From NCBI GenBank assembly GCA_034439475.1, contig JAWXAN010000070.1:26906-90905 (forward strand): DNA of 64,000 bases, read 5' to 3'. The notes under the pieces were generated by a model. The model saw only the letters and a program-made list of their open reading frames with translations, was not told where the DNA came from and did not search any database. This DNA comes from Candidatus Zixiibacteriota bacterium. Its GTDB lineage: Bacteria > Zixibacteria > MSB-5A5 > GN15 > FEB-12. Both the position numbers and the translations under genes were made by a program. Shown piece by piece: positions 44,595 to 63,422 of the stretch. Each line of letters opens with the position of its first letter. Positions within the stretch are counted from its first letter, which is position 1.

Positions 44595-44832
44595 TTCTTT
44601 CCTACCTTAATTTATCGTATCCGCGTGTTGTTCAATATAATCGATTCTCATGCTAAGATTCATAATTGAGTGGCCGGACAGCAAGGAGAAATTCGGACAG
44701 ACCAAAGAATGCTTTTAGATCAACTGGGCACCCCAAACTTATATTTGTCTTAGCCCCGCTATGATCGTATGATATTATCAAATGAGAAGGCGGCAGAATC
44801 TGTATCACAACCACCCCCCCGAATCATAAACC

Positions 44833-45099
44833 ATGCCAACATCGACAAAGCCAATCAAACTCTACATCCTTCGCTGTCGCGACAATAGTCTCTACACCGG
44901 AATTACAACCGATATCGACGAACGGCTTCGTGCCCACAACACCGGCAAAGGAGCAAAATACACTCGCGCACGTTTGCCTGTCAATTTGGTCTACACAGAA
45001 CAGTGCGGTTCGCGATCACTTGCGCTCAAAAGAGAATGGCAGATCAAACGCTGGAACAAACAGAAAAAAGAGGCCTTCGTAAAAGCCTCATCTCAATAA
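44833..45099 (+). CDS. GIY-YIG nuclease family protein (UPF0213/YhbQ-like), copy L
   Basis: 88 aa. KLYILRCRDNSLYTGITTDIDERLRAHNTGKGAKYTRARLPVNLVYTE...ALKREWQIKRW matches the GIY...YTG...R..H...Y core. Confidence 0.9.
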   Translation: MPTSTKPIKLYILRCRDNSLYTGITTDIDERLRAHNTGKGAKYTRARLPVNLVYTEQCGSRSLALKREWQIKRWNKQKKEAFVKASSQ

Positions 45100-45425
45100 A
45101 TTATCAAAGCCGGATAGCCGCGTTAATATCGCTCATCCAACCGCCACATTTCTCTTTTAAGAAATAGTCCCGACAGGTTGGGCTCTTGTTCGGTCATTTC
45201 TCTGTCGATATATGTATTATGAATGGAACGACTCTTCTCATCGGTCTCATCACCGGATCGGTTGGCTCGGGATTCTTTATCTATGGCAAAAAGCAACGCA
45301 AATGGCTGCCGATGCTTTCTGGAGTCCTGCTATGTATCGCGCCCTATTTTGTCGAGAATCTGACACTGCTTGTGGGCCTGTCTATAGTTCTCTGCGCGGT
45401 CCCTTTTGTTATCAAGGGTGATTGA
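44845..45425 (+). repeat. Left arm of diverged inverted duplication (GIY-YIG + small membrane gene)
   Basis: It aligns with the reverse complement of about 61684-62380, at roughly 80-90 percent nt identity by eye. Homology starts a few codons into the GIY-YIG ORF and ends exactly at the membrane-gene stop codon. Confidence 0.85.
45219..45425 (+). CDS. 68-aa hydrophobic membrane protein, copy L
   Basis: MNGTTLLIGLITGSVGSGFFIYGKKQRKWLPMLSGVLLCIAPYFVENLTLLVGLSIVLCAVPFVIKGD has two or three TM segments. It is conserved as a second copy at 61684-61890. The ORF-track start at 45186 is not conserved in copy R. Confidence 0.7.
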   Translation: MNGTTLLIGLITGSVGSGFFIYGKKQRKWLPMLSGVLLCIAPYFVENLTLLVGLSIVLCAVPFVIKGD

Positions 45426-45767
45426 CACTTCGAAAGCAGATGCAGGAAGAGCATATGCTGTCGCTCGTTGCAGCCCGGTATGACTTGCAGAGCCCCCTTG
45501 AAGTCGACCTTCTTGATCCCGCCCAAATTTTATTTGGATATCTGAGACCAAAAGAGTATCCTATTGGTATAGCCAGCGCTACCATGCGCTGGCCGATGTG
45601 GACTTCGTACCGATGCCAAACGTGAATAACATCACTCAGTTGCTGTCCTCCGTGCGCCGCCTGAGCCGCCGGATCGTCCGCCTCAGCCCCCGCCGCGTCC
45701 ATAGCTAACATCACCGCCAGTTCCTCCGGGATCGACTTACGTATAAGTGACTCGAAGAATAGCTCAG

Positions 45768-48700
45768 TTATTCAACCTGTCGGTTTTTCTGTTCACGCTT
45801 AAGTTGACTCAGCCGCCAGTACGTGTAAATGACTGGAATGACCTCAAGGGTTAAAAAAGCAGAAGTTATGAGTCCGCCAACCATCGGGGCGGCGATTCGC
45901 TTCATAACGTCTGCTCCTGAGCCTGTAGCCCAGAGTAAAGGAATCAGCCCGAAGAGCATAGTACCGACTGTCATCAGCTTTGGACGAACTCGCATAACGG
46001 TGCCTTCCATGTGCGCCCAGATAATATCGTCGAGATTGCGAATCTTTCCTGCCTGTTTGCGCTTCTCATAGGCCTGGTCAAGATAGAGAATCATCACAAT
46101 TCCAGTCTGAGTTGCTAATCCAACAAGGGCAATTATTCCTACCAATGTGGCGGTGGAATAGTGGTAGCCGAGGAAATACATCAGCCAGATGCTGCCGACT
46201 AATGCGAAGGGAACGGAAGTGAGGACAATAAGTGTTTCTGTAATATTACGGAAGTTCAAAAATAGGAGCACCATCACAAGAATAAGGGTAATTGGAATAA
46301 CCAATTTCATTCGCGCAGCCATTTGCTCGTATAGCTCATATTGTCCTGTCCATTTGAGATGGAAGCCCGCGGGCATGTCGATTTCGCGCCTTACAGCGGC
46401 CTTTGCTTCATTCACATAACCGCCTATATCACGTTGACTCTGATCAATGTCGACGTACACATAGCCGACCAGCATGCCATCCTCGTCACGAATCATTGGC
46501 GGACCAGTGACAATCTTGACTTCAGCAATTTGCCCAAGAGGAATCGATGAACGACCTCGTGATACGTTTGGGTCATTTGCACGACTCCCTCCAGATGAAC
46601 CAGACGAACTATTCATTGAAGATTTCGACCCTCCGCTCGGGGCAGATTGCAATGCTGAATACGGCGAATTCATAGGTAAGCCGCCCATACTTCCGCTGCC
46701 TGTTGAAGGAACTGACATGCCAGAAGGTTGATTGCCGGCAGATATAGATGACATTGAATTTCCACCAGATGACGTGTTTGAAATTGTCGTACTATTTTCT
46801 AAAGTCATCGGCAGAGGAACAAGAATCTGTTTCAACTGTTCTAGGTTGCTTCGGTATTCTCGCGGATAACGGACATTAATCGAAAAACGATTTCTACCGT
46901 CAACGGTTAAGCCAACCTGCGCGCCGCCAATGGCTGATTCGACAATGTCTTGTACATTTGAAACTGTCAAACCGTATCGAGCGATGGCCTTGCGATCCGG
47001 AATTATGTCTATAAAGTAACCGCCGGTGTTGCGATCTGAATAAACACTTCGTGTTCCTTCAAGTTTTGAAAGGGATTGTTCAAGCTGTTTGCCGATGCGT
47101 TCGATTTCTTCAAGATTGTTGCCGAATATTTTTACACCAATGGGTGTGCGAATTCCCGTGGAGAGCATATCGATACGTGTCTTAATGGGCATTGTCCAAG
47201 CATTTGTCCATCCAGGCATTTGCAGGGCTTTATCCATCTCAGTTGTCAGCTCATTCCACGTGATGTGCCTTGAGTCCGGCCAAATCGGTCGAAATACTGA
47301 TTTCAGGAAGTCTGGCGACCACGATGAATACCATCGCCTTTGAGGCACTTTCCGCCACTGATCATTCGGTTTTAACTGAACCACTGTTTCGATCATGCTC
47401 AGCGGTGCGGGGTCAGTTGGTGTTTCCGCCCGTCCGGCTTTGCCAAAAACAGTTTGGACTTCGGGGAAGGATTTAATAACTCGATCCTGAAACTGTAAAT
47501 ACTGCTTTGCCGCCTCTATAGAAATGTTTGGAAAAGTTGTTGGCATATAGAGCATGTCGCCTTCATTGAGCGGAGGCATGAACTCCGAGCCAATTTTTGG
47601 AATCATAGGAAGAGCCGAGAGAATGGCCATAATACCGATTGCAACGGTGGTCTTGGGATTGCGGAGCGCGACATAGACAAATGGTTTGTAGATCCCAATA
47701 ATAAATCGTGATACCGGATGTCGGGATTCTGGTCGAATTTTCCCCTTCAGTAAGGTGACCATAAGAGCTGGAGCGATCGTAATTGCAGTGATCGCTCCAA
47801 AGAACATTGCAAAGGTTTTGGTAAAGGCAAGCGGTTTGAAAAGCTTTCCCCCCTGACCGGTTAGCGCAAAAATCGGAAGAAACGATATTGTGATAATGAG
47901 CAGGGCAAAAAATATCGCAGGGCCTACTTCCTTAGCCGCAGCTATGATAACTTCCTTGCGATCAGTTTTATCTGTTGCATGCTCCAAGCGCTTATGCGCA
48001 TTTTCGACCAAGACAATACTCGCATCGATCATCGCGCCCACTGCAATTGCAAGGCCTCCCAGACTCATAATATTTGAGTTAATGCCCAGCAGATACATTG
48101 GAATAAAAGATAGGCCGATTGCAATAGGAAGTGTCAGTATAGGCACAAGCGAGCTTCCGAAATGAAGTAAAAAGAGAATGATAACCAGCGCGACCACAAT
48201 ACCTTCTTCGATGAGACTATGGCGCAAAGTTTCAATACTCCTCTCGATTAATCCGCTGCGATCGTAGACTGTCCTGAGTTCAATACCAGTGGGAAAGGAG
48301 GGTTGAAGATCTTTAAGTTTTGTCTTAATCCTCTCGATTACCTCAAGGGCATTTTCGTTGTAGCGCATGACCACGATACCGCCAACAGCCTCTCCGATCC
48401 CATCAAATTCACCGAGACCGCGACGCATATCGGGTCCAAGCTTCACTGTTGCAACATTCTGAAGCAGAATAGGCGTTCCCGTTGCTGTTGAACCAAGTGA
48501 TATCTCGCGAAGGTTATCTATGTTCTTAACATAGCCGCGGCCGCGTATAAAATACTCGCGCTCTGTCATCTCAAGGATACGTCCCCCGACATCCGAATTG
48601 CTTTGCCGAACAGCGCTTATAACATCGCTAATTGAAAGACTAAAAGCCTGCAGACGCACTGGGTCGACTTCAATTTGGTACTGCTGCTGGTATCCGCCCA

Positions 48701-49238
48701 CCGTGGCAACTTCGGCGACACCTGGAATTGCAGACAATGCCAATCGGAGATTGAAGTCTTGATACGTCCTCAAATCAGCAAGGCTATGTTGGCCGGACGT
48801 ATCGACAAGCGCATATTGGAATACCCAGCCAACGGCCGAAGCGTCAGGGCCAAGAAGAGGAGAGACACCTGGCGGCAGTTTCCCCTCGAATTGCTTCATG
48901 TATTCAAGAACTCTACTTCGCGCCCAGTATATATCAGTACCATCATCAAAGATGACATAGACGAACGACATGCCAAACATAGAATATCCGCGAACAGCCG
49001 AAACTGCTGGGGCGGACAGCAGAGCAGAGACAATGGGGTAGGTAATCTGGTCTTCAACCAAATCAGGGCTTCGACCCATCCATTCAGTCCAGAGAATTAC
49101 CTGTACGTCAGAAATATCTGGAATCGCATCAAGAGGTATACTTTTGATGGCATACCACGACCCGATAGAAGCAAAAACGGTAGCTATAAGAACTACAGAC
49201 CGATTGCGGGCACAGAAATCAATAATCGCTTTTATCAT
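45768..49238 (-). CDS. cusA: CusA-type heavy-metal efflux RND pump with an approximately 88-aa Ser/Gly/Met-rich insertion
   Basis: 1156 aa. [28 protein letters not shown] matches the E. coli CusA TM4 region ([26 protein letters not shown]). The overall CusA/CzcA architecture is present, with the insertion at 46545-46808. Confidence 0.9.
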   Translation of the reverse strand: [1156 protein letters not shown]

Positions 49239-49249
49239 TGTGTTCTCTT

Positions 49250-50893
49250 TTACTCTTTCATTCCGCCGTGACCGGCGTGAGGGTCAGATTGAATCGAGGT
49301 CATACCGGCTAATGCGGCCTTCAAGCGGCTCTCTGAGTCAATCAAAAAGTTCGCGCTGTTTACTACAATCTCCCCTTCGCGCAGGCCCGAAAGTATTTCA
49401 ATTCTGTCATCTGTGCGGCTGCCTGTAGTGATAAGTCGCGGTTCGAAATGGGAAGTATTATGCACAACAAATACATACTGTCGCGAACCTTCATCAACTA
49501 TGGCGTCTGGCGAGATTGTAAGCGCATCGGCAGCTGTCTGTTTAAACCGAACCGTAACAAACATGCCCGGTTTGAAATGTCCCTCTGGATTCGATAATGG
49601 AATCCGCGCTTTGGCTGTACGAGTGCTCTCGTTCAGAGTCGGATAGATAAATTGGACTTTACCTTGTATTGGATTAGCGGATCTGCCAAGGGTGATTTCG
49701 GCTGATTGTCCAGAAGAGACTTTGGTAAGGTCTGTTTCGTAGATATCTGCCAATACCCAGACTATGCTGAGATCGGCGACAGTATAGAGGGCTTGGTCGG
49801 AGGTGATGGATTGACCCACATTGACCATCTTCTCAAGCACAATGCCGCTAATGGGTGAACGTAAGAGCAGCTCAGGATTAGTTTTTCCAGACTTGATTAT
49901 TTCTTCTATTTCTTTTTCAGACAACCCAAGAAGGCCAAGTCTGTGGCGTGACGACAAGAGAAGCTCAGTTCTCGTTCTCTTTAATGTGCTGTCGCCAATT
50001 GATTGCGCAGCTGATTGGGCGGCAAGAAGAAACTCTTGCTGAGCTTGGAAGAGTTCTGGACTATAAAGAGACAGCAAAGGCTCACCACGTTCGATTCTCT
50101 GACCGGTTTCATTTATAAAAAGCTTTTGTACAAATCCATTCGTGCGGATGCTGACTGAAGCCGTTTTCGCTTCGTCAGCAACTATGTAACCAACAGTCTC
50201 GATATCTTCGCTCAGACTCTCGTGTTTAACTGTTTCGGTCTTGACGTTGATAAGTTGCAGACGTTGCGGTTCAATAGTCACCGATACCAACCCGGGCACA
50301 TTGCCAACATTCATATCCATATCGCCATGCATTTCATGCTCTTCTGCATCGCGAGGAATCAAATCCATTCCGCATTTTGGACATTCTCCGGCACTGTCTG
50401 AGACAACTTCCGGATGCATTGGACAGTAGAATTTGGCTGAAGAGTTTGTAGCTTTCATCGCTGGCTCAAGATTCATGCCGCACTTGGGGCACTTGCCCAT
50501 TGTGTCAGAAACAACTTCTGGGTGCATCGGACAGGTGTAGTAAACCGAGGTATCAGAAGTAGAGGTCATGTTTTCGGAAGGGGTATCCGCCATTATATGA
50601 TCTTTGCCGCCAATTGGAACAAGGCTCATGCCACAGATGGGACAATCCCCAGGCTGATTGCTCACGTATGTGGGATGCATTGGGCAATGGTATTGAATTT
50701 TTGCATCGACCGTCGTCTGCCAAGGCGCCAGGTCAAATGCTGTTAGAACCATTACTATGGCAAAGAGGGTCATAGCGCCAAGAAGGCCCCATCGTACAAT
50801 TGACATCGTTTTCGTACCGGGAGGAGGAGCTTCTTCGCCTTCTGGCATTGCATTTGGGTCATTAAAATTATGTACGTTGTGTTCTTCTGTCAT
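49250..50893 (-). CDS. cusB: RND periplasmic adaptor (CusB-like) with three N-terminal CPMHP...CPxCGM heavy-metal-binding domains
   Basis: 547 aa with a TM anchor. Three repeats (YHCPMHPTYVSNQPGDCPICGMSLVP, YTCPMHPEVVSDTMGKCPKCGMNLEP, FYCPMHPEVVSDSAGECPKCGMDLIP) are followed by EEHEMHGDMDMN and then the MFP barrel-sandwich and beta-barrel regions. Confidence 0.85.
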   Translation of the reverse strand: MTEEHNVHNFNDPNAMPEGEEAPPPGTKTMSIVRWGLLGAMTLFAIVMVLTAFDLAPWQTTVDAKIQYHCPMHPTYVSNQPGDCPICGMSLVPIGGKDHIMADTPSENMTSTSDTSVYYTCPMHPEVVSDTMGKCPKCGMNLEPAMKATNSSAKFYCPMHPEVVSDSAGECPKCGMDLIPRDAEEHEMHGDMDMNVGNVPGLVSVTIEPQRLQLINVKTETVKHESLSEDIETVGYIVADEAKTASVSIRTNGFVQKLFINETGQRIERGEPLLSLYSPELFQAQQEFLLAAQSAAQSIGDSTLKRTRTELLLSSRHRLGLLGLSEKEIEEIIKSGKTNPELLLRSPISGIVLEKMVNVGQSITSDQALYTVADLSIVWVLADIYETDLTKVSSGQSAEITLGRSANPIQGKVQFIYPTLNESTRTAKARIPLSNPEGHFKPGMFVTVRFKQTAADALTISPDAIVDEGSRQYVFVVHNTSHFEPRLITTGSRTDDRIEILSGLREGEIVVNSANFLIDSESRLKAALAGMTSIQSDPHAGHGGMKE

Positions 50894-50908
50894 ATTGATT
50901 TGCCTTAC

Positions 50909-52258
50909 TTATTCGATTGTATTGTTGGGTGAGATAGAAATCTCACCAGTTCGCATTCCCGCTTGAAGTAGTGTCATTGCCAAATCAAGCTTCAGTTGCT
51001 CAAGGGATATGGCGTTGTCTTGAACCGCTCTTGCCTGCTGGATTACAGAACTATATGGTGTACGATTGGAAGAATATCCAGACATTCCGATTCGGAGAGC
51101 GTCTTCTGAGGCAGGAAGAATGCGGTTCTCATAAAGATGAATTTGTTCCTGAATGCGAATTGCTTTCTCAAATAATGCTGTCAATTCGGCATAAAGTTCA
51201 CGTCGGCGCTGGGAAAGCTCACGCTCAACGCTTTGACTCATTATTACCATGGAATGAGCCATCTTTTTCTGCGAACGACCATTGAAAAGCGGTAATGATA
51301 CATTAGCGCCAAAACTGACCATATCATCGCGAGGCATTTCATCACCGCCCATCCCTATATCTGAACCGGAGCGAAATCCGTATTCTGTCCTCAGTTCAAT
51401 CATAGGCCATGACATCCGTTTGTTGGCTTGTGCTGATAGTCTCAATGACTCACTCTGTCCCTGTAGTCGAATGAGTTCAGGATTATGCTTTTCTGCTTGA
51501 TTTAGCCAAGCGATGGGCGATGTGGGCACTGGAAGGCTATCCGGCAAGAGCGCGACAACAGGTCGAGATAAATCCTCGTTTCCACGAAGGGCGTTAATTT
51601 GAATAGTTGCCTCGATAAGTTCCTGGCTATAATTGATTATTGCAGCTTCATGCCGCCATTTTTCACTTTCAAGCGCCAAGACCTCGTCCTGTCCTGCTAA
51701 GTTAGAACTAAATCGAGCATGAGCCGATGCGGTAAGCTGGTCATCAAGAGCATGCTGGCGGACAAGACGCTCCAATGTAGTCTGTCGAAAGTAGAGTTGA
51801 TAGAACGCCATAATCGAAGCCGACTCCACCTCAAGCTCCTTCATCGCGCTGTCTGCAGCCGCTTGGTCAATCTCCGCAAACGAGGCCTTACGTTCAAAGC
51901 CTCGCCTGCCGGAATAGGGGAGCTCCCAAGAAAGACCAAGAGTCTTCATGGTCATTGGGTCTTGGTTAACGTCGAACGAGGTGGGCAAATTCTCAATGCC
52001 AACCATAAGCATTGGATCGGTCCAAGCGCCGGAAGCCGATGATTTCTCGCGAGCCGATTCTATCATGAGCCTTGATGCCGCCAAGCGGTCGTTTCGCTCA
52101 AGAACCTGCGAGAGGAGCGAGCTAATCGTCAGCGTATCGGCATAGAGAACGTCAGGTGTCTCATTCGTCACCTGCGCGTCTGCAATACCATTAAGAAATA
52201 GCAAACTTGCAACAACTCTAATGCAGATCTCAATTCCTATTTGAGGAACCATGTTCAT
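50909..52258 (-). CDS. cusC: TolC/OEP-family outer-membrane efflux protein (CusC-like)
   Basis: 449 aa with a signal peptide. ISSLLSQVLERNDRLAASRLMIESA is a typical OEP N-terminal repeat, and the helical repeats are duplicated. It sits first in a C-B-A gene order. Confidence 0.8.
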   Translation of the reverse strand: MNMVPQIGIEICIRVVASLLFLNGIADAQVTNETPDVLYADTLTISSLLSQVLERNDRLAASRLMIESAREKSSASGAWTDPMLMVGIENLPTSFDVNQDPMTMKTLGLSWELPYSGRRGFERKASFAEIDQAAADSAMKELEVESASIMAFYQLYFRQTTLERLVRQHALDDQLTASAHARFSSNLAGQDEVLALESEKWRHEAAIINYSQELIEATIQINALRGNEDLSRPVVALLPDSLPVPTSPIAWLNQAEKHNPELIRLQGQSESLRLSAQANKRMSWPMIELRTEYGFRSGSDIGMGGDEMPRDDMVSFGANVSLPLFNGRSQKKMAHSMVIMSQSVERELSQRRRELYAELTALFEKAIRIQEQIHLYENRILPASEDALRIGMSGYSSNRTPYSSVIQQARAVQDNAISLEQLKLDLAMTLLQAGMRTGEISISPNNTIE

Positions 52259-52395
52259 TCCTTCAGCTATACTTCGTGCATAGCAAAGTTGATAGTTTTC
52301 GAAGATGTAGTGTTGCCCTTAGACAACAAAACGCCTTAACAATGTTGGTGTGGGATTAGCAGATCGTCCAGTTAAAAACGATCTGCAAGAAAAAA

Positions 52396-52830
52396 TCAGA
52401 GGCGAAGAACTGAGAATGTCCCCGGTGAATGGTCGAAGAAGAGTTCAAGGGCATGAGCATTATATGTGGAATAATCTTCAAGAGAAGATTGCATACCTTG
52501 TATCAGGGAGGGCAAATACGGTCCGTAAGAAAGCAGAGATAAAGTATTGATCTCTCCGACTTGGTCGCCAGCCTTCAAGTAGTAGAACCACCCTGGGCAA
52601 CAGCTATGACTACGTGAATGATCAGAGGAGGAATGACAGGGTGAAGTAGTACTTGAAGAGGTTTCACTGTGACAGCATGGAGAGGCCGGAGGCGTGTCCG
52701 TAGGCGAAGCAGTGGTTACCGCTTTTGAATCAGAAGGATAGACAATACTACAAATACATCTGGTCTCGAATAATGAGACCATCGCCAGCAGAGCGATAAA
52801 GAGTTGAAATTGTTTTAAAAGACTTTTCAT
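52396..52830 (-). CDS. Small secreted Cys/His-rich protein, unknown function (leader gene of the cus-like operon)
   Basis: 144 aa. The signal peptide is MKSLLKQFQLFIALLAMVSLF, followed by PCCHSETSSSTTSPCHSSSDHSRSHSCCPGW. There is no obvious SD, and the C-terminal half is unrecognisable. Confidence 0.45.
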   Translation of the reverse strand: MKSLLKQFQLFIALLAMVSLFETRCICSIVYPSDSKAVTTASPTDTPPASPCCHSETSSSTTSPCHSSSDHSRSHSCCPGWFYYLKAGDQVGEINTLSLLSYGPYLPSLIQGMQSSLEDYSTYNAHALELFFDHSPGTFSVLRL

Positions 52831-53282
52831 ATTTTAAAATAGTCTACACTAAGTGTCGACACAACTAATACATAAATCAAGAATAAAATGTTCATTTTAT
52901 TTTGGGGGGACAATGTCGCAACTTTTGAGCGCGGAGATTCATCAGGATTGAGAAGAAATACTCAAAAGTGACCGCAATCTTGTATACTGCTCCCTCGTCC
53001 ACAAGGGTATAATCCTTCTTTCGAGATTTAGTGTTTATTTTGGCTGAGTCACGAGATCTTGAAAGTGAAGTCAAAGTTTCTCTGAGCATATGATCCGGTA
53101 GAATTGCTCCAATGAAGAGAAGCGCGTCGTTTGCATGGCTGGTAACTAACCATTGTTTCCGCCACCTCTCAGGGGTGATATTGTAAAAGGATGTTTTAGC
53201 TTGCTTTTAAATAGAATTGGAATGATCTTTACTTAATCAATCAGATCGTACTCATCAAAACCTTAAAGGGATAATTCGAGTC

Positions 53283-55841
53283 ATGGCACATGAATCATCA
53301 TTTAAACCGGGCATGATGATTGGCTCTTATGAGATTGTACGGCTTGCTGGTTCGGGCGGGATGGGGGAAGTTTATCTTGCGAACGATACAAGACTTCATA
53401 GGAAGGTTGCGCTCAAGGTTCTGGCCATTGACCATCAGCGGCCAGTTGATGTCCGTATGCGGCTTCAGCAAGAAGCGCAAGCATTAGCGTCTGTGAGCCA
53501 TCCAAACATTGGCTCTATTTATGATCTCGTTGAGATTGACAATCGGCTCGTGATGGTCATGGAGTGGATAGAAGGTAAACTCCTTTCCAGTATAGTAGGG
53601 AGTGTCTCACAAGATCAGCTGCAATCAATAGCTGTGGATGTTGCTGCCGCTCTTTCTGCGGCTCACCACGCAGGCATTTGTCACGGGGACATTAAGCCGT
53701 CCAACATTATTCGCGGTGACGATGGCCGGACTCGGGTATTTGATTTCGGAATAGCGCGGACGTTTGCCGATTCCCTGAGTTACGCTGACTATTCCGGCAC
53801 AATATCCTATATGGCCCCTGAGCTGATTTCAGGAAATGCTCCGTCACCACAGTCTGACCAGTTCTCGCTGGGTGTGCTTTTGTACGAACTAGCAACCGGA
53901 ACAAAGCCGTTCTCTGGTGACTACGAAGCGGTCGTTCAATACCAAATCCTGAATCTGACCCCCGCACCGATAACTACGCTCCGTTCTGATCTGCCTCAGT
54001 TTTTGATTGACACGATTAATCAATTGCTCGAAAAGAATCCGGATCAACGATTTGGTGATACGTCAGAGATTTGTGCAGCGCTCGGACAACAGACTGCGGA
54101 GCCCGCATCAGGCCTCTTGTGGCGGCGTTCAGTCCGGGTCGCTTTGTCAGCAATTATCGCGGTGATTATTTTAAGCGCAGGTACGGCCATAGTCCGGTAC
54201 GGCGGGCATGAGGAAACAGATGATTCAGAACGAAGGACAATCGCCGTGCTCCCCTTCGAAAACACCGGAGGACCGTCGCAAGGATATTTCGCTGATGGCA
54301 TGACTGATGCGATAATCGCAGGACTCGCCCAAGACACGGCCGTCAGCGTTATCTCACGGCAGAGCGTTATGAACTACAGAGGGAGCAGTAAGACTATTCA
54401 AGAGATCGGCCGCGAACTGGCGGTCGCCTTCATCCTGACCGGCGGCATTCAGAGAAGCGCCAATACGAACGGTGATAATCTCCGCATAAGCGCGAATCTT
54501 GCCGACGTTCGCACTGGTCGAATGAGATGGGCCAAAGTGTACGACAGAAATCTGAATGGACTATTTGCCGTTCAGAATGAACTCGCAGTTGATGTGAAAA
54601 AGGCCCTGCATCTGAGCGACACTACTGGCAGGAATCTACCACCGCCCACTTTTAGTCTGAGCGCATACGATTTCTTCTTAAGAGGCAACGACTACTTTAA
54701 TCGGGGCTGGTCTCACGAGGACATTCGGTTCGCAATCGGAATGTACGAAAATGCGGTTGCCGAAGACTCGAGCTTTGCGATGGCTTATGCTATGCTTGCG
54801 CGATGTCACGCCAGTATGTTTTGGGAGTATTTTGATCGTACTGATAGTCGATGCCTCCGAGCGCGGCAAGCGGCAGATCGTGCGATGACGCTTAAAAGTG
54901 ATCTTCCTGAAGCATACCTCGCACTCGGCTACTACTATTATCATTGCGAGCTTGACTATATACGAGCGCTAGAGCAATTCTATATTGCACTTCGGTTAGA
55001 TCCTAATAATTGCGAATTGCTGAATGCCATCGCCGCCGTAGAACGGCGTCAGGGAAATCTCCCCATGGCTTTGGAGCATTTTAAACAGTCTCAAAAGATC
55101 GATCCACGCTCACATCTTAAAGCATTTGAAGTTGGGCTGACATATGGACTGATGCGGCAATATTCCGATGCGCACATATACCTCGATCGCGCCATAACGC
55201 TTTGTCCAGACTGGTCGCTGGCATATATTTATAAGGCATGGTTGTCCATTCTAGAGGACGGCGATATTGAAGCCGCGCGAGGGACACTTGCAAAAGCTCC
55301 ACCTGAAGCAAATCTGCAAAGAAGTCACTACTATTGGTGGCTTCAGCGAATTGTCCAACCGAATGTATCTCCCGAAATGACCCATATCCCAGTTATGGAT
55401 GACACCGCAGCGTACTATCTGTTTCTGAGTCAAATAAACCGATTGAGGTCCAATTCCTATATGCGGCGTGCTTATGCTGATTCGGCACGTAACTGGATAG
55501 CGCCGCGACTTGCCACCGCGCCGAACGCCGCCCGATATAACAGCTATCTTGGATTGGCTTATGCCGAATTGGGCGAGAAAGAAAAGGGGGTGCAATTCGG
55601 ACAGAAGGCATTGGAATTATTGCCGACCTCTCGCGATTCATTTGATGCCCTTTTTCTTCTTCTTAATATGGCCGAAATTCTGGTGATTGTAGGAGAGCAG
55701 GAACAAGCGATTGGGCAGATTCAATATATGCTCAGCCTGCCGGGGTTTGTCTCGAAGCCATATTTCAAGGTCGATCCGTTATGGAGGTCATTAGAGGCGC
55801 AGCCAGAATATCGAAAGCTGATATATGGAAGCAGCAGTTGA
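53283..55841 (+). CDS. Ser/Thr protein kinase (non-RD, HGD) with TM segment, TolB-N/FlgO-like periplasmic module and TPR repeats
   Basis: Kinase motifs are present: GSGGMGEVYLA, VALKVL, CHGDIKPSNII and DFGIAR. A TM segment (VALSAIIAVIILSAGTAIV) follows, then RRTIAVLPFENTGG...FADGMTDAIIAGL and a long TPR-like C-terminus. Confidence 0.85.
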   Translation: MAHESSFKPGMMIGSYEIVRLAGSGGMGEVYLANDTRLHRKVALKVLAIDHQRPVDVRMRLQQEAQALASVSHPNIGSIYDLVEIDNRLVMVMEWIEGKLLSSIVGSVSQDQLQSIAVDVAAALSAAHHAGICHGDIKPSNIIRGDDGRTRVFDFGIARTFADSLSYADYSGTISYMAPELISGNAPSPQSDQFSLGVLLYELATGTKPFSGDYEAVVQYQILNLTPAPITTLRSDLPQFLIDTINQLLEKNPDQRFGDTSEICAALGQQTAEPASGLLWRRSVRVALSAIIAVIILSAGTAIVRYGGHEETDDSERRTIAVLPFENTGGPSQGYFADGMTDAIIAGLAQDTAVSVISRQSVMNYRGSSKTIQEIGRELAVAFILTGGIQRSANTNGDNLRISANLADVRTGRMRWAKVYDRNLNGLFAVQNELAVDVKKALHLSDTTGRNLPPPTFSLSAYDFFLRGNDYFNRGWSHEDIRFAIGMYENAVAEDSSFAMAYAMLARCHASMFWEYFDRTDSRCLRARQAADRAMTLKSDLPEAYLALGYYYYHCELDYIRALEQFYIALRLDPNNCELLNAIAAVERRQGNLPMALEHFKQSQKIDPRSHLKAFEVGLTYGLMRQYSDAHIYLDRAITLCPDWSLAYIYKAWLSILEDGDIEAARGTLAKAPPEANLQRSHYYWWLQRIVQPNVSPEMTHIPVMDDTAAYYLFLSQINRLRSNSYMRRAYADSARNWIAPRLATAPNAARYNSYLGLAYAELGEKEKGVQFGQKALELLPTSRDSFDALFLLLNMAEILVIVGEQEQAIGQIQYMLSLPGFVSKPYFKVDPLWRSLEAQPEYRKLIYGSSS

Positions 55842-55851
55842 GCATGCTTGA

Positions 55852-57438
55852 TTAATCGGCAGGCAGCTTGAAACCGTAACGGACCATTTTGTCTTTCAGC
55901 CCCTTTCGAGTCAAACCCAACTGATCTGCTGTGCGCATGATATTGCCATTGGTTTCGGCAAGCGTTGACACAATCATGGTCTTCTCTAATTTTTCAACGG
56001 CCTGACGCATTTCCCCAAGCGAAGTACCAATACTTGAGATTTCCTCAGTCTCATCGTGGATTTCAGGAGATAGATGATAAGGCTTAATCTCAGTTTCTGG
56101 ATTGCAGACGACCGCCGCGCGCTCGATCACATGTTCGAGCTGCCGAGCGTTTCCGGGCCAGGAATATCGGTAAAGGGTGTCAAGCGCTTCCGATGAGACA
56201 GCCAGATTTGGCGCATTGAGCTTGATGCGCAGCAAGGAAAGAGCATGTTGCACCAACAGCGGAATATCGTCGCGTCGTTCTCTCAATGGCGGCAGTTCGA
56301 TCGTGAATGTGTTCAGTCGATAGTAAAGATCTTCCCGAAACGTGCCCTTGGCGATTTCGTCCTTAAGGTTGCGATTTGTGGCCGACAGGACTCGCACCTT
56401 TACTGTTTCGGTCTTACTTGCGCCAACTGGCCTGATTTCACCCGACTGGATGACACGCAAAATCGCAGCCTGGGTTGACAGCGGCGCATCCCCAATTTCA
56501 TCAAGAAAGATAGTACCACCTTGAGCCTCTTTGAATAGTCCCGGCTTTTCCTTGTCTGCGCCGGTGAATGCTCCCCTGACGTGGCCGAAGAGCTCTGATT
56601 CAAGCAGCGACTCTGTTTTAATTGCGCAGTTTTTCACAACAAATGGCTGGTGCCGGAGATCGCTGTTCGCGTGAATTGCCCGGGCAATGAGTTCCTTCCC
56701 CGTGCCGGTTTCCCCTGTGATAAGTACCGGAGCGTTATTAGCGCTAAACTTTGACGCCAGCATAAGCACATGACGAATTGCGCGAGACGAACCGACGATA
56801 TTCTCAAAAGAAGGGCCAACCCCAAGCTCCGTGCGCAATATTGCGTTTTCATCCTTAAGCTGTTTGTACGATAACTCAAGCAGTTCGTTGTTCTGAGCCA
56901 GGTCTTTCAAGAGCTGTGCGTTGGCGAGTATTTGCGCAGACTGGGCCGAAAGAATTCCAACTAAACGGCAATGGTCCTCGGTGAATGGTCCCTTCTGACG
57001 TGATCGCACTAGCGCTACTACTCCTATCGCCTCGTCCCGAACTAAGAGCGGGCAACAGATCGCCGACGTGAACCGCCCATTATCGGAATCGAGATCCTGA
57101 AAACGTCTGTCAGTGTCCAGATCATCAATCCGCGCTAACTGGCGGTGAGAGAGCACCCAGCCAGCAAGTGATTGGCTTATTTGAAAAGGAAGTTCAGAAT
57201 TTCGTCGGTCATTATTGCGAATAACTGTCGTTAATGCGTCAGCTTGCTTTTTTGACACGATGCTTATGACTCCCTGATCCGCTTCGGTTACTCTTGTCAA
57301 CTCAGTAAGAATGATATTCATGATGTGATTTACTTCGCGGACCTGACAAATACGGCCGACTACTGTGTTAATCAGACGCAGTTCCTCTACGGCCTGCCAA
57401 TTTCTCGGATCGGGTTGCATTGCGCTCATTTTTCTCAA
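55852..57438 (-). CDS. Sigma-54-dependent transcriptional activator (GAF - AAA+ - Fis-type HTH)
   Basis: It has an N-terminal GAF-like domain and Walker A VLITGETGTGKE. The GAFTGA loop is exact (RGAFTGADK). The C-terminal HTH is NGNIMRTADQLGLTRKGLKDKM. There is no receiver domain. Confidence 0.9.
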   Translation of the reverse strand: MRKMSAMQPDPRNWQAVEELRLINTVVGRICQVREVNHIMNIILTELTRVTEADQGVISIVSKKQADALTTVIRNNDRRNSELPFQISQSLAGWVLSHRQLARIDDLDTDRRFQDLDSDNGRFTSAICCPLLVRDEAIGVVALVRSRQKGPFTEDHCRLVGILSAQSAQILANAQLLKDLAQNNELLELSYKQLKDENAILRTELGVGPSFENIVGSSRAIRHVLMLASKFSANNAPVLITGETGTGKELIARAIHANSDLRHQPFVVKNCAIKTESLLESELFGHVRGAFTGADKEKPGLFKEAQGGTIFLDEIGDAPLSTQAAILRVIQSGEIRPVGASKTETVKVRVLSATNRNLKDEIAKGTFREDLYYRLNTFTIELPPLRERRDDIPLLVQHALSLLRIKLNAPNLAVSSEALDTLYRYSWPGNARQLEHVIERAAVVCNPETEIKPYHLSPEIHDETEEISSIGTSLGEMRQAVEKLEKTMIVSTLAETNGNIMRTADQLGLTRKGLKDKMVRYGFKLPAD

Positions 57439-57649
57439 TTTCTTTGGTGCGTGTCTTCCATCTCAAAATAGGAAGGCAATGCCGTGAGGTCAACCTTTTA
57501 GTACTGATTGATTGAAAGCAAGTAACCACCAATTCAGCCTCAATTGTATAGTTTCTATCCTCTCGCTATTAATTTCGTCTTGATCTTGCTGCTGTCCACA
57601 CCCTTGTCTGGCTTTAGCTTCAGACAGTTTCGAGCAAGTCGAATGTCTT

Positions 57650-57665
57650 TGGCACTAACCTTGCC
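57650..57665 (+). promoter_or_regulatory. Sigma-54 (-24/-12) promoter TGGCAC-N5-TTGC
   Basis: The sequence tTGGCACtaaccTTGCc is a perfect consensus core, 126 nt upstream of the ATG at 57791. It is divergent from the activator gene. Confidence 0.8.
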
Positions 57666-57790
57666 TTGCATAGAGACATGGTAAACAAAATGGCTCGAAA
57701 GGAAGAAATGAGTACGAACGAAACTCAGAGGGTTAGTACGACCAAACTCATACAATCAGCAATTAAAACAATGACAGGAGAAGGAACACT

Positions 57791-59035
57791 ATGATTTCAC
57801 GAATGATCGCTCTGTTTGTGTGTATGGCACTGGCATTAATAGCCGGCGCCTGCCAAGAGAATAAAAACCCCATGAATTATGCCGACAACTTCTCGGCGAG
57901 GGCCAACAACGAAAACGCCGCGCTGAGTCCGGCGGCCTCTGCTCCTGATCCGTCGGGGCAGGTGACGATATCGGCAGGCAGCAAATCACTGACGTTCTGG
58001 CCATTCACATCGAACAACTTCGAGGGAGAACCGCAAGACCCGATTAACCTAATCTTTTTTGGGAAATGCGATCCAAGACAAATTCGCGCCGCATTAATGG
58101 GTCTGGATGGTGACCGATCGGCATTGGGCTTTCCGGCTGTTGCGCCCTTTAACTCACGATGGGATGATGCTATTGGAGATGTTCAAACCAGTTACGGCGA
58201 TGGCGGATGGACCGGCGGCGTTATTCAACTCGCCTGCGGTGATTATATGTCAGTCCGTTTTCATTTACGACTGTTTACTATGGGCGAGTGGACGGTCGGC
58301 AATGTTCATTTTGAAGCATTGATCCCCGGCACGGCCGATCACCAAGTCCTCAATTGGGAAGTTGCCGAGCAGTTCGTGGTCGGTGATTTTTTCCGAAGCG
58401 GCTTGCTTGACGCAACTACTCCGGTAATCCAGACCGAGCAGATAAATCCCTCTCCATTTCGAACGATACCAGCAATTATCTATAATGGTCTCCCGCACGA
58501 ATTACAGGGACTTATCGGAGGACCGATTGGACAGGTGCAAAACGACGTTCCGATAGGAACCGACGGCCATGCGATGATTTTGAATCTTGCTCATGCCGTT
58601 CCCGTAGTTCCCGAAACCAAGGTTCAGGAATTCGTAGTGTTTTACGACCAGGTCATTCCGAAACCATTCTGCAACGATGGCGATGATTACCTCTACGCGC
58701 AGGGACCGGTTACACTCGAACAGGTAGTGACAATAACTCATGATCTCAATTATGAGTTATCTTTCAAAGCTGAAGGCACATTGACCCTGACTCCGGTCAA
58801 TCCGTTGGACGGTCAGCCCCTTGGTCCATCTCTGAGGGCGAAAGTAATGGAAAAACATAGGGGACGATTCACAACACGTAACTGGACAGTGGGCAGTTCC
58901 AAGCTGCAAAAGATCACTCCCGCCAACGCGCCAGGGGCGGGCTCGCTCAAAAGCGATCTTGAAATAAACTCAAATGGCAAAAACGACTACTCTATTTTCA
59001 TCCGGTGCGCCGATGAGGCGATCGCTGGGAAATAG
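57791..59035 (+). CDS. Probable lipoprotein, unknown function (operon gene 1)
   Basis: 414 aa. AGGAGAAGGA precedes the ATG. The signal peptide is MISRMIALFVCMALALIAGAC. I cannot name any domain with confidence. Confidence 0.7.
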   Translation: MISRMIALFVCMALALIAGACQENKNPMNYADNFSARANNENAALSPAASAPDPSGQVTISAGSKSLTFWPFTSNNFEGEPQDPINLIFFGKCDPRQIRAALMGLDGDRSALGFPAVAPFNSRWDDAIGDVQTSYGDGGWTGGVIQLACGDYMSVRFHLRLFTMGEWTVGNVHFEALIPGTADHQVLNWEVAEQFVVGDFFRSGLLDATTPVIQTEQINPSPFRTIPAIIYNGLPHELQGLIGGPIGQVQNDVPIGTDGHAMILNLAHAVPVVPETKVQEFVVFYDQVIPKPFCNDGDDYLYAQGPVTLEQVVTITHDLNYELSFKAEGTLTLTPVNPLDGQPLGPSLRAKVMEKHRGRFTTRNWTVGSSKLQKITPANAPGAGSLKSDLEINSNGKNDYSIFIRCADEAIAGK

Positions 59036-59116
59036 AGCTCATTGACATTAAGACGGGCGCCAGAAGGTTGGTTTTCTGCCCATATCTCTGGCGCCGCGAA
59101 TAGGAGAAGAAGAAAC

Positions 59117-59878
59117 ATGAAATATTATTTATCTTCGTCGGCCTTTATGTTCTGCATACTTGCGATTCTTAGCGCAGACAGCGCCACAGCCGCTTCGAAA
59201 CGGTCAGCGGCAGAGCTTGCAGGTCTGCCTGCCGTCGACAGCGCGCTCAAGATTACAAAGGTGCACACACCGGTCAGTTTTCCGCGTCTGATCACAGGGC
59301 TGGGTATTGGGCTCGCTACGGCCGGTACATCTTCGATCAAATCAGGATTGGATACCGTGCTGGCCTCATATGGAGTTGCTGGCAACTCCCGTATTGGTGA
59401 GCCGTCCACTTCAATTACCGCGGGTTTCCGCTTTCAATTCTCGGAGCGGCTAGGAATCTTTTTAGATTTTCTAAATGGAGGCACCCCGAACGCAAACCAG
59501 TTCATCAAATCGGCCGCCAGTGTCGGGTTAGTTGTGACTCCGTTTCGAACTCGCACCGGTTCCGCCGCTGTTTCGTTTGGAAGCGGTATAACGGTTCAGA
59601 AACTCGAGTCACATACTACCTATAACCTCCCCATACCCTCCAGCTTTGGCACACTGGAATACATTAGGATCGAAACACACAGTACTCTCGGCGTCCCGCT
59701 GGTTGCGATGCTGGAATTGCCCGCCGCCGCGACCTCACGATACAGCATGATATTCACTGCGCGGCACGTCTTCTCACCCGACGCCAAAGTGGAGGAAAAC
59801 TACTCCCCCGGCACAAATTTTAAGGTCAATATGTCGGGAAACTACTTTTCCATAATGCTGAACGCTGGCATAAATTAG
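59117..59878 (+). CDS. Secreted protein, possibly small beta-barrel OMP, unknown function (operon gene 2)
   Basis: AGGAGAAG precedes the ATG at 59117. The signal peptide is MKYYLSSSAFMFCILAILSADSATA. The body has an alternating beta-like pattern, is Gly/Ser/Thr-rich, and has no C-terminal Phe. The ORF-track start at 59042 adds an Arg-rich leader. Confidence 0.6.
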   Translation: MKYYLSSSAFMFCILAILSADSATAASKRSAAELAGLPAVDSALKITKVHTPVSFPRLITGLGIGLATAGTSSIKSGLDTVLASYGVAGNSRIGEPSTSITAGFRFQFSERLGIFLDFLNGGTPNANQFIKSAASVGLVVTPFRTRTGSAAVSFGSGITVQKLESHTTYNLPIPSSFGTLEYIRIETHSTLGVPLVAMLELPAAATSRYSMIFTARHVFSPDAKVEENYSPGTNFKVNMSGNYFSIMLNAGIN

Positions 59879-59910
59879 ATTTTAGGTTTATAGAAAGAAG
59901 AGAGACTATT

Positions 59911-61461
59911 ATGAAAAAGATAACGCCTTCAACAATTACATTGATTCTGATGACATTTCTTATGCTCAATAGTTGCGTACCCTACCGGCAGTGGGTGCCG
60001 CCACAGGGTCTGACAGCGAACACTAAAGGCCGCATGGAAGTTCTGACAAGGAACGGCAATGTCTATCGATTATCCAATGGACGTTTTATGAATTACAATA
60101 TCTTGGGGTTAGGATCGGTGACAACAACCGAAAATAAGACAGATGCATTTGGGGGAAGTATCCCATTGGACAGTATTGCGCTTGTGCAGGTGCACCGCGA
60201 AGATCTGTTCGCTGGCCTGTTATCTACGGCGAGCACACTCGCAGTCGTCGTCTTGGGCATTGTTGCAACTGCCGAAGGCCAGACTGGGGTGACTGTCGGT
60301 ATCCGTTACCCTCCTAGCTCCGGCGGCGGGTGGGGTTCCTGTCCGCTCGCTTATTCGCTCAAGGATGACAGCCTTCATCTCGAATCCGAAACCTATGTAG
60401 GCGCAATTTGCGGCAAACTTGAGCGAACTGCAACCGATGTGCTGAGACACTTAGGGCCATCTGGTGACAGTCTGACTCTCAGTATTCGAAACGACTCGCC
60501 TGAAACTCATCTGACCAATTCGGTGAGCCTGATGGCAGTAGATCATCCGTTAGGGACAGAGGTCGTTACAGATATCTACGGCACACTACATACCGTTGGA
60601 GATCGTATTCCCTGCAGAATGGCTCGCGATGAACGAGGGCGCGATGTCACATCGCTGGTCGTATCCAGAGATAGCTCTTCGTATACAGCCAATCTGATTG
60701 AAATCGATCCTGAAAATGAGGAAGATCTTCGCGATGCCGTCACAGTTGAATTTAACTGTCCGCCCGAAGCACGCCGCGCCAAACTTATCGTGACCTGCAT
60801 GAACTCAGACCTTGCCGACTACGCTCTCAACAAGCTCTTCTCGTTGCGCGGTCCATCAAAACTGCAGTACTATCACAAGCTCGACAATGACCGATCTGAA
60901 TTTTTTAAGCTGGTTGGATGGATGTTTCGCGAGGGCGGGCTTGAAGTTTCGGTGTGGGATAATGACCATTGGGTCCGCAATGGTTCAATTGCAGGAGTAG
61001 GCGGACGAGTCTTTGGCGAGCGAATAGTTTTAATTGATCTTGCGGTAACTGACAGTAAAGTCCGTGTGAAACTTGAAGGGACATCCGGACTGTGGAAGGT
61101 CGATGCGGTTGAAATAGATTACTCCGAAGATGCCGCGTTCGAGCTTACGGAAGCTCACTTGCGTCAGGCGCTGACAAACAAGGGGGAAAATATTGCGTCA
61201 ATTCTCGCTGACCAGGATCAGGACTACTTCCGGACAATCACAGATGAATGGGTCAATTTGTCATTTGATACTGTTAAGATCAAGTCCGGCTTCAGCCGAA
61301 GCTACATTTTGAAAACGACCGGCCACTACTTCGGCTGGTTTGAACAGGATGATCAGGACAATAGCGCTGTAGCCGATCGCATTTTGACCGAGCCATTGTA
61401 CGGAAGTAAGCTCTATCTCAAAGACTGGCTGCGGGCGAAAGCGACGGTTGCGAAAAAATAA
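59911..61461 (+). CDS. Secreted/lipid-anchored protein with one internal hydrophobic segment, unknown function (operon gene 3)
   Basis: 516 aa. MKKITPSTITLILMTFLMLNSC is a signal peptide ending in Cys. A hydrophobic stretch LFAGLLSTASTLAVVVLGIVATA is followed by ...WGSCPLAYSLKDD.... I cannot name any domain. Confidence 0.7.
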   Translation: MKKITPSTITLILMTFLMLNSCVPYRQWVPPQGLTANTKGRMEVLTRNGNVYRLSNGRFMNYNILGLGSVTTTENKTDAFGGSIPLDSIALVQVHREDLFAGLLSTASTLAVVVLGIVATAEGQTGVTVGIRYPPSSGGGWGSCPLAYSLKDDSLHLESETYVGAICGKLERTATDVLRHLGPSGDSLTLSIRNDSPETHLTNSVSLMAVDHPLGTEVVTDIYGTLHTVGDRIPCRMARDERGRDVTSLVVSRDSSSYTANLIEIDPENEEDLRDAVTVEFNCPPEARRAKLIVTCMNSDLADYALNKLFSLRGPSKLQYYHKLDNDRSEFFKLVGWMFREGGLEVSVWDNDHWVRNGSIAGVGGRVFGERIVLIDLAVTDSKVRVKLEGTSGLWKVDAVEIDYSEDAAFELTEAHLRQALTNKGENIASILADQDQDYFRTITDEWVNLSFDTVKIKSGFSRSYILKTTGHYFGWFEQDDQDNSAVADRILTEPLYGSKLYLKDWLRAKATVAKK

Positions 61462-61683
61462 GCTTCGAAGAAAGGACCGCCTGCCTTCACACCATGGTGG
61501 ACAGTGGTTCCGCCTTGGGTGTCAGTCTCGACGCGCTATTTTTACACTGACCGGGGAAGCTTAAGACATGAGTAAGGTCACTTGCGCTGAAATTTTCACT
61601 TTTCTCATTGGTCGATTCCATTAGTCTAAATGGATGAAAATGAATAATACCATTAGTAAAAGTGTAACGAAGTATTTTATCAT

Positions 61684-61890
61684 TCAGTCACCCTTGATAA
61701 CAAAGGGGACAGTGCAGAGAACTATCGACAGGCACACAAGCAGTGTCAGGTTCTCGACAAAATAAGGCGCGACACACAACAGGGCTCCTGAGAGCATCGG
61801 CAGCCACCGGCGTTGCTTTTTGCCATAGATGAAAAATCCGGAGCCAACCGATCCGGTGATGAGCCCGATAAGGAGAGTGGTTCCGGTCAT
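61684..61890 (-). CDS. 68-aa hydrophobic membrane protein, copy R
   Basis: MTGTTLLIGLITGSVGSGFFIYGKKQRRWLPMLSGALLCVAPYFVENLTLLVCLSIVLCTVPFVIKGD matches copy L at 62 of 68 residues. Confidence 0.7.
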   Translation of the reverse strand: MTGTTLLIGLITGSVGSGFFIYGKKQRRWLPMLSGALLCVAPYFVENLTLLVCLSIVLCTVPFVIKGD

Positions 61891-62380
61891 TGTCTTTTCG
61901 TCCAGCGCTTAACGTTATTGATAGGTCAAACATATATACCTGCCGCAGGGAATTTTTCATCAAGGATTCACCGGGGCAGGTTACTTTACGTTTGACAGGA
62001 TCATAGTAAATATATCGGGAGAAGATTGGCTGAGCATGAGCCCAACCAGTTGGGACTATTTGTCAAACAAGAGTCGTAATGCTCGAATCAGCGAAATCAA
62101 TGCGGCTGTCCGGCCTTGATGAATGGTTGAGCAGACTCCTTCACAAACGCCTCTTTTTTCCGTTTGGTCCATCCTTTAATCTGCCATTCTCTTTTGAGAG
62201 CAAGTGATCGCGAACTGCACTGTTCTGTGTAGACCACATTGACCGGTAGACGAGCGCGAGTGTATTTGGCTGCATTACCAGCGTTGTGCGCACGAAGCCG
62301 CTCGTCTATATCAGTTGTTATTCCGGTATACAGACTATTATCGCGGCAGCGAAGAATGTAGAGTTTGAGCGGCTTTTTGT
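61684..62380 (-). repeat. Right arm of diverged inverted duplication (GIY-YIG + small membrane gene)
   Basis: It is the reverse complement of the left arm. Relative to the left arm it carries an extra stretch of about 90 nt between the two genes. Confidence 0.85.
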
Positions 62381-62390
62381 GCGCTGACAT
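62097..62390 (-). CDS. GIY-YIG nuclease family protein (UPF0213/YhbQ-like), copy R
   Basis: 97 aa. KLYILRCRDNSLYTGITTDIDERLRAHNAGNAAKYTRARLPVNVVYTE...ALKREWQIKGW. It runs 9 codons longer at the C-terminus than copy L, which has a premature TAA relative to it. Confidence 0.9.
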   Translation of the reverse strand: MSAHKKPLKLYILRCRDNSLYTGITTDIDERLRAHNAGNAAKYTRARLPVNVVYTEQCSSRSLALKREWQIKGWTKRKKEAFVKESAQPFIKAGQPH

Positions 62391-62671
62391 ATTTTACAAT
62401 CCGTGCATATCGTTTTGACGTATACTCTCTTGCCAGTCGGGCAATTCAATGTCTTCTCATCTACTATTATGATACCGCGTTCACTGAGCGAGGTCAAATG
62501 TTCTCGTTGAAGTCCTATATGGCAATATAAATTGTTGGGCGGCTGTAAAGAAGAATGTAACTCCAGAAAAAGTGAACCGTCAGGTGACACTTCTGCCTCG
62601 CTCAAATCGCGTCGCAAGCGAGAGCTGAGGGAACGGTTCTACCACTGCCCATGCGCCACCGAAAAGACCGC

Positions 62672-63151: not shown

Positions 63152-63349
63152 AAACTCTCCTGTTGGTATTCGCACCGTCTTGGCTCATCCGGAGCCGGGT
63201 GTTCCATTTCAATGTTCCGTCGGGCCTTGCCCATACCGAGGCTTTACCGAGGGATAAGTGTAACCTGAAGGAACATTTTTAACAAGATCACTTTAGAAAT
63301 CTTCGAATTGCCTGAATTTTTGCCTAGTTCGCAAAATCGTTCTAAATAG

Positions 63350-63422
63350 CTCCCGCGGCAGGACTCGAACCTGCGACCCGCTGATTAACAGTCAGCTGCT
63401 CTACCAACTGAGCTACACGGGA
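63350..63422 (-). tRNA. tRNA-Asn (anticodon GUU)
   Basis: The reverse complement is TCCCGTGTAGCTCAGTTGGTAGAGCAGCTGACTGTTAATCAGCGGGTCGCAGGTTCGAGTCCTGCCGCGGGAG. The acceptor stem is 7 bp, with a D-loop AGCTCAGTTGGTAGAGC, an anticodon loop CTGTTAA and a T-arm GGTTCGAGTCC. CCA is not encoded. Confidence 0.9.

Follow-up and report, generated by a model that had tools for sequence, protein, structure and literature searches.

A 64,000-nucleotide stretch of the genome of a Candidatus Zixiibacteriota bacterium (NCBI GenBank assembly GCA_034439475.1, contig JAWXAN010000070.1, positions 26,906 to 90,905 of the forward strand; this whole stretch is hereafter the window, to which all coordinates refer) contains two copies of a pair of small genes, one for a GIY-YIG nuclease and one for a 68-residue membrane protein, which face each other across 16.3 kb that carry a cusCBA metal-efflux operon and signalling genes. 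What does such a geometry record: a segment that recombination can invert, a genomic island trapped between duplicates of a selfish nuclease cassette, or paralogues with ordinary DNA between them? All three readings were put forward in a preliminary description of the window. Our results support only the last of them, in that the copies are sisters, both are maintained by selection and a single duplication would account for them. We propose that the two units are probably the products of an old, lineage-specific inverted duplication, and that they are now paralogues flanking ordinary operons.

Organization and limits of the inverted repeat

Two pairs of inverted arms, 16.26 kb apart, were detected by the repeat finder: one of 418 nt with 78% identity (44805-45222 and 62001-62418) and one of 207 nt with 87% identity (45219-45425 and 61684-61890). 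Chance inverted matches elsewhere in the region are all at most 33 nt long, and the inverted repeat is real and well above the chance level. Each arm has the same layout, i.e. a promoter-like site, a UPF0213/Slx1-like GIY-YIG gene, a spacer and the gene for the 68-residue membrane protein; coordinates, strands and alignment thus bear out the preliminary description of two genes in the same internal order on inward-pointing arms. With their upstream sites, the full arms span approximately 44745-45425 on the plus strand (∼0.68 kb) and 61684-62497 on the minus strand (0.81 kb).

In exact alignments, the left and right GIY-YIG genes are 83% identical in nucleotides and 83% in amino acids, and the membrane-protein genes 87% and 91%, respectively; the range of 80-90% nucleotide identity previously estimated by eye holds for both gene pairs. 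The spacers are ∼70% identical and clearly homologous (local-alignment z = 25). Divergence is 13-17% in the genes and 13-30% across the whole arm, and the two arms share no perfectly matching stretch longer than 23 bp.

The outer limit of detectable homology is marked by a sigma-70-like promoter candidate on the left arm (TTGTCT-17-TATGAT, 44745-44773, plus strand), 59 nt 5' of the GIY-YIG start, with which a promoter-like site on the right arm (TTGACC-17-TATCAT, 62497-62469, minus strand) is aligned in register. Homology upstream of the nuclease start is weak (z = 2.1) and reaches these sites; the first approximately six nuclease codons are more diverged, not outside the homology, so that the repeat does not begin a few codons inside the nuclease reading frame, as had been supposed. 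The inner limit is as it was first described, with no homology detectable 3' of the stop codon of the membrane-protein gene (local-alignment z = 0.3). The duplicated unit is one complete predicted transcription unit, which begins at the promoter-like site and ends with the membrane-protein gene.

The GIY-YIG nucleases

The left nuclease (44833-45099, plus strand) has 88 residues and the right nuclease (62097-62390, minus strand) has 97. Both match the Pfam family PF01541 (E = 3.8e-20 and 1.6e-20, respectively) with scores of 72-74 bits, where the cut-off is 22.6; the GIY-YIG domain spans residues 10-79, and no second family was matched in Pfam or NCBIfam. The only two matches in the PDB are 1zg2 (UPF0213 protein BH0048, E = 3.9e-19) and 1ywl (EF2693, E = 1.2e-15). 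These two structures have been placed in a bacterial Slx1-like cluster of minimal, stand-alone and mostly vertically inherited proteins, and the selfish GIY-YIG enzymes, i.e. those of homing and restriction, descend from the UvrC+ lineage (PMC1564403). Like BH0048 of B. halodurans and EF2693 of E. faecalis, the present proteins consist of a single GIY-YIG domain of ∼90 residues with no auxiliary domain, and they are predicted to be nucleases of the minimal UPF0213/bacterial Slx1-like type. Unlike those relatives, the nuclease gene here precedes, and is duplicated with, the gene for a small membrane protein. The arrangement also differs from that of GIY-YIG homing endonucleases, in that there is no DNA-binding module, the unit lies between genes and has a promoter-like site of its own, and there are two copies only.

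The family-invariant residues (Y11, Y21, R31, H35, KYTR and E68) are kept in both proteins, and all conserved residues are intact in the left one. Both copies depart from conserved columns at the same five positions (W8, G46A, H61R, L74W and L82F). Identity between the two is 83%, and none of the more than 7,800 other homologues exceeds 68%. Their mutual identity and the five joint departures identify the two nucleases as sister paralogues. The left nuclease is nearer to the family consensus. The right nuclease alone carries K39N, G40A, L52V and G59S at columns with a conservation of at least 94% across the family; the first two of these changes turn the near-invariant motif GKGAKYTR into GNAAKYTR, and its C-terminus is extended by nine residues through read-through. 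These private changes at conserved columns, together with the nine-residue tail, mark the right nuclease as the derived copy.

The small membrane protein and its pairing with the nuclease

The two membrane proteins, both of 68 residues, are encoded at 45219-45425 (plus strand) and 61684-61890 (minus strand). Three helices are predicted; in an AlphaFold2 (AF2) model of the left protein (predicted local distance difference test, pLDDT, 81) they span residues 3-26, 29-44 and 48-65, and a fold search with this model returned only insignificant, generic helical matches. No NCBIfam family was matched, and a Pfam search up to E = 10 gave only sub-threshold noise. In a word-indexed protein search the protein appeared to be very rare (four clusters). 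This proved to be an artefact of the word index, as a DNA-level scan of species-representative genomes gave 432 confirmed loci in many phyla. A widespread family with no Pfam model was thus almost wholly missed by the word-indexed search. Its members share the invariant motif G(Y/F)FIYGKKQ...PML(S/A)G, and exact look-ups return the database labels 'hypothetical' or a propagated 'amino acid transport protein'. The hosts include Acinetobacter, Nitrospira, cable bacteria and Zixibacteria.

Neighbours of the membrane-protein gene are diverse and conserved within genera only, with no consistent partner. A GIY-YIG gene was found near it in none of the 80 best loci (up to 10 kb on either side; four other Zixibacteria included), and the contigs of the three more distant homologues in the protein database lack the nuclease. 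Conversely, the membrane-protein gene is absent from all 80 metagenomic loci that carry the closest relatives of the nuclease; a small hydrophobic reading frame lies downstream of the nuclease relative in 4 of 68 loci, and all four are unrelated to the 68-residue protein. No copies beyond the two described here were found in the window or in the protein collection. The pairing of nuclease and membrane-protein gene is lineage-specific, exists in exactly two copies and is not a recurrent module. The remaining Zixibacteria loci of the membrane-protein gene have no neighbours in common with either arm and do not indicate which arm is ancestral, and a literature search on Zixibacteria with GIY-YIG and on YhbQ/UPF0213 found nothing. 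That an otherwise unseen pairing has been retained twice hints at cooperation between nuclease and membrane protein in this lineage.

Age, selection and proposed history of the duplication

Differences between the copies are concentrated at third codon positions: the first, second and third positions account for 10, 6 and 29 differences, respectively, in the nuclease pair and for 5, 3 and 18 in the membrane-protein pair. By the Nei-Gojobori method, synonymous divergence (dS) is 0.73 with a ratio of non-synonymous to synonymous divergence (omega) of 0.12 for the nucleases, and dS is 0.49 with an omega of 0.09 for the membrane proteins. Values of dS of ∼0.5-0.7 point to an old duplication, and an omega of ∼0.1 indicates that both genes have been kept by purifying selection in both copies.

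The following history would fit these observations. The genes for a GIY-YIG nuclease and a 68-residue membrane protein would have been joined in one Zixibacteria lineage into a transcription unit of ∼0.68 kb, in which they are presumably transcribed together. The whole unit would then have been duplicated once, in inverted orientation, within this lineage and long ago; we infer that this happened within the genome, and we likewise infer the order of the event relative to the arrival of the genes that now lie between the copies. Purifying selection would have retained all four genes while the right copy drifted further from the consensus. The intervening 16.3 kb would be ordinary chromosomal DNA with several independent operons, of which the metal-efflux operon was maybe acquired horizontally. 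The present-day arms, in turn, would be too diverged to recombine efficiently and have no dedicated recombinase to serve them.

Other explanations of the inverted arrangement

One copy might have arrived by horizontal transfer from a close relative, perhaps together with adjacent genes such as cusCBA, and landed in inverted orientation. The third-position guanine + cytosine (GC) content (GC3) of cusCBA, which lies beside the left arm, is only 0.45, and the right copy differs in its behaviour, with its changes at near-invariant residues and its C-terminal extension; both features would suit a foreign copy. The pairing, the spacer and the five derived residues are common to the two arms, so the donor must have been a very close relative that carried the unit. 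No such donor lineage is found among 5.8 billion proteins, and the arm genes show no compositional oddity, the tiles at 42-46 kb and 60-64 kb being normal. We regard such a transfer as unlikely.

Inverted paralogous repeats, such as rrn operons and insertion sequence (IS) copies, recombine and thereby cause chromosomal inversions. The arms may similarly serve, or once have served, for homologous recombination by which the 16.3-kb segment is inverted and its efflux and signalling genes are reoriented relative to the flanks. Here, too, two inverted homologous stretches bracket a chromosomal segment: repeats of ∼0.7 kb provide the required geometry, and the arms of a young duplication would have been nearly identical. 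Unlike rrn operons or IS copies, the arms of today are only ∼0.7 kb long and 13-30% diverged (13-17% in the genes), with no perfect run above 23 bp. Inside the segment, raw GC skew is close to zero or positive, compared with mostly negative values in the flanks, as an inversion footprint might be. We discarded this signal: at third codon positions nothing of it was left when gene strand was taken into account (plus-strand GC3 skew -0.034 inside versus -0.017 outside, p = 0.68), and third-position skew follows gene strand only. A switch or shufflon driven by an invertase would differ further from the present locus, which has no recombinase family on neighbouring genes and no near-identical short inverted sites. 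No family of recombinases, integrases or transposases was found on the genes from ∼35 kb of the window to 6 kb past its end, and the ∼9 kb to each side contain no gene for an invertase or a recombinase.

Contigs with the exact arm proteins were found in ∼12 assemblies, i.e. seven from the Joint Genome Institute (JGI), four from Logan and one NCBI metagenome-assembled genome (MAG), with more than 30 contigs in all. The junctions are identical to those of the window in every contig that crosses the left arm (10) or the right arm (22-25), and no chimeric arms occur. Coexisting orientations would break or branch the assemblies at the arms, and nothing of the kind is seen there, so that at the contig level these assemblies hold a single orientation and none of the variants envisaged in the preliminary description. 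Inversion of the segment, past or present, is in our view quite improbable.

Ends of contigs from several independent assemblies coincide at two places, with four Logan contigs ending inside a tRNA-Asn gene (63387-63402) and four inside the AAA+ region of the sigma-54 activator (56316-56350). The shared ends probably reflect breaks of the assembly graph, at sequences common to other tRNA and activator genes, and not structural variation.

That the segment is a genomic island or a composite mobile element, taken up or relocated between two copies of a selfish nuclease cassette and possibly integrated beside tRNA-Asn, is very unlikely, despite several features that recall such an origin. GIY-YIG domains do occur in homing endonucleases. 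As in composite transposons and tRNA-linked islands, inverted repeats frame cargo-like metal-efflux and regulatory genes, and a tRNA gene lies close by, i.e. tRNA-Asn(GTT) (63349-63422, minus strand), which was correctly placed ∼1 kb past the right arm in the earlier account; it lies ∼0.9 kb outside this arm and outside the repeat, with its 3' end facing the arm. The synteny of a distant relative breaks exactly past the same tRNA gene. Composition deviates modestly, most strongly in cusCBA, and metal-efflux operons are frequently transferred horizontally. Against this, the nucleases (88-97 residues) have no DNA-binding domain and belong with the UPF0213/Slx1-like proteins, not with the homing lineage (PMC1564403), and the pair occurs in two copies only and in none of 160 comparison loci. 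Unlike composite transposons, the arms encode a nuclease-domain protein and a membrane protein only, with no transposase and no terminal IS; unlike tRNA-linked islands, the locus has no integrase and no tRNA fragment, and its overall GC content is that of the flanks. Family annotations and the repeat finder agree with the preliminary description that IS-like repeats, transposases and integrases are lacking, and the repeat finder found neither flanking direct repeats nor a target-site duplication at the arms. Partial tRNA-Asn direct repeats, which had been raised as a possible trace of integration, are absent across the window, where no 12-mer is shared with tRNA-Asn and its 40-nt surroundings on either side, so that att-like repeats are lacking as well. 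A dS of 0.5-0.7 under purifying selection is also unlike the ends of recently active elements. PADLOC gave no match for the arm genes.

The suggestion that the pair is a new two-component module, e.g. a membrane-associated structure-specific nuclease, which selection has preserved in two diverging copies and whose inverted copies have flipped, or rarely still flip, the efflux and signalling segment is one to which we attach very little credence.

Several observations weigh against our preferred explanation, an old inverted duplication of the two-gene unit around ordinary operons. The first concerns composition, the suspected deviation of which is found in part: GC content is equal (0.494 inside and 0.492 outside the segment), while tetranucleotide and codon usage are modestly deviant, mainly through cusCBA. 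The tetranucleotide distance between the segment and the 44.8 kb to its left is 14.9, compared with a null of 10.4 ± 0.65 for same-sized pieces; codon-usage deviation is slightly greater for the segment genes (p = 0.001); and the GC3 of cusCBA (0.452-0.453) is the lowest in the window, with at least 0.469 elsewhere. Some of the segment may thus have a foreign origin. As judged from these values, the efflux operon was possibly acquired horizontally within otherwise native DNA, and the segment forms no clean island. Second, the edge of arm homology lies within ∼2 nt of the stop codon of the membrane-protein gene, which is tidy for a random duplication; decay of unconstrained DNA at the present divergence could equally give so sharp an edge. 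Third, every contig retrieved is collinear with the window at 100% identity, so that they represent one clonal population, which limits the power of the orientation test, and rare inversions in a subpopulation could escape it. Fourth, the nearest sampled relatives are at most 44% identical, so that the ancestral arrangement is not shown by a sister genome.

This last value derives from the core PDZ protein encoded beside tRNA-Asn, the best non-self match of which is at most 44% identical among the 5.8 billion proteins. In the two best relatives with long contigs, the linkage of the PDZ and HPr kinase genes is kept, and tRNA-Asn is kept in one of them. Synteny with both ends just beyond the tRNA, and none of the segment genes is present there. 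A metagenome scan anchored on the flanking kinase returned no loci.

The locus illustrates that inverted repeats around an apparent cargo can reflect an old paralogous duplication and not a mobile or invertible element.

Spacers, hairpins and the right-arm insertion

In the left spacer (119 nt; 45100-45218, plus strand), the block AGTCCCGACAGGTTGGGCTC occupies 45166-45185 and a hairpin 45176-45195, after which comes a T-rich tail, and the right spacer (206 nt; 61891-62096, minus strand) contains the block AGTCCCAACTGGTTGGGCTC (62038-62057) and a hairpin (62027-62048). The best-conserved stretch, AGTCCC(G/A)AC(A/T)GGTTGGGCTC (45166-45196, plus strand; 62027-62057, minus strand), overlaps the hairpin just 3' of the nuclease gene. 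The conserved block, written as AGTCCCRACWGGTTGGGCTC, is confined within the window to the two arms. The right-arm spacer has a folding z of -2.75. The left hairpin with its T-rich tail is terminator-like and could serve as an attenuator between the cistrons. Substitutions that preserve pairing in the hairpin were considered as support for its structure and discarded: the 5' arm consists of G and T throughout, so that any opposite transition keeps the pairing. Rfam scans of both arms, at gathering and permissive thresholds, gave no credible RNA family.

The greater length of the right spacer is associated with a 114-nt insertion found in this arm only (61891-62004). It is bordered by ATGA/ATGA and holds an imperfect palindrome of ∼85 nt (61919-62003) with outer arms GTCAAAC...GTTTGAC; no further copies occur in the window. 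Its origin may be miniature inverted-repeat transposable element (MITE)-like or attC-like.

A hairpin next to a small nuclease gene recalls the Ssn family (cd10448), site-specific single-domain GIY-YIG nucleases acting on ssDNA, whose targets are hairpin repeats on the flanks of the nuclease genes themselves; UPF0213 is treated as a separate Slx1 family in the same study (PMC11893778, Chenal et al. 2025). As in Ssn systems, a small single-domain GIY-YIG gene is directly followed in both arms by a conserved short hairpin block. Unlike them, the spacer block is not repeated outside the arms and the best structural relatives are UPF0213 proteins. The published Ssn-related motif (SRM; as a regular expression, PMC11893778) has no matches in the 64 kb, with 0.3 in shuffles. 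Membership in the Ssn family appears unlikely: the absence of the motif, the confinement of the block to the arms and the PDB matches to UPF0213 all count against it.

Genes in the enclosed segment and its surroundings

The enclosed segment (45426-61683, 16.26 kb) comprises at least four separate transcription units, and its content was correctly described from the start: cusCBA with a Cys/His-rich gene, a TPR Ser/Thr kinase, a sigma-54 activator and three unknown genes. The first unit (45768-52830, minus strand) contains cusCBA itself (45768-52258) and, upstream of cusC, the gene for a Cys/His/Ser-rich protein of 144 residues (52396-52830, minus strand), the N-terminus of which is signal-like and which falls in no known family. 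The CusB-like adaptor (49250-50893, minus strand) has three tandem N-terminal heavy-metal-binding repeats (CPMHP...CPxCGM), whose coding sequences (50412-50433, 50520-50541 and 50673-50694) account for the direct-repeat family D2.

The TPR Ser/Thr kinase follows at 53283-55841 (plus strand). A second kinase lies outside the left arm (41934-44594, minus strand), and the two share a kinase-domain similarity that appears as inverted repeat I3 (33 nt, 73%). This similarity is ordinary domain paralogy, separate from the duplication of the two-gene unit.

The sigma-54 activator with a GAF domain (55852-57438, minus strand) is divergent from an operon of three genes (57791-61461, plus strand) for proteins of 414, 278 and 516 residues, which have no Pfam, NCBIfam or PADLOC match. 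Between them, upstream of the operon, lies a sigma-54 promoter-like site (57650-57665, plus strand), and this position suggests that the activator may control the operon. The site is one of three near-consensus TGGCAC-N5-TTGC sites on the plus strand (the others are at 19416-19431 and 22115-22130), all ∼60-125 nt 5' of plus-strand genes; overall counts of sigma-54 sites are not enriched over shuffles.

Far from the arms, a thiamine pyrophosphate (TPP) riboswitch (Rfam RF00059, 73.5 bits; 7720-7816, plus strand) lies upstream of a gene for a protein of 847 residues (7904-10447).

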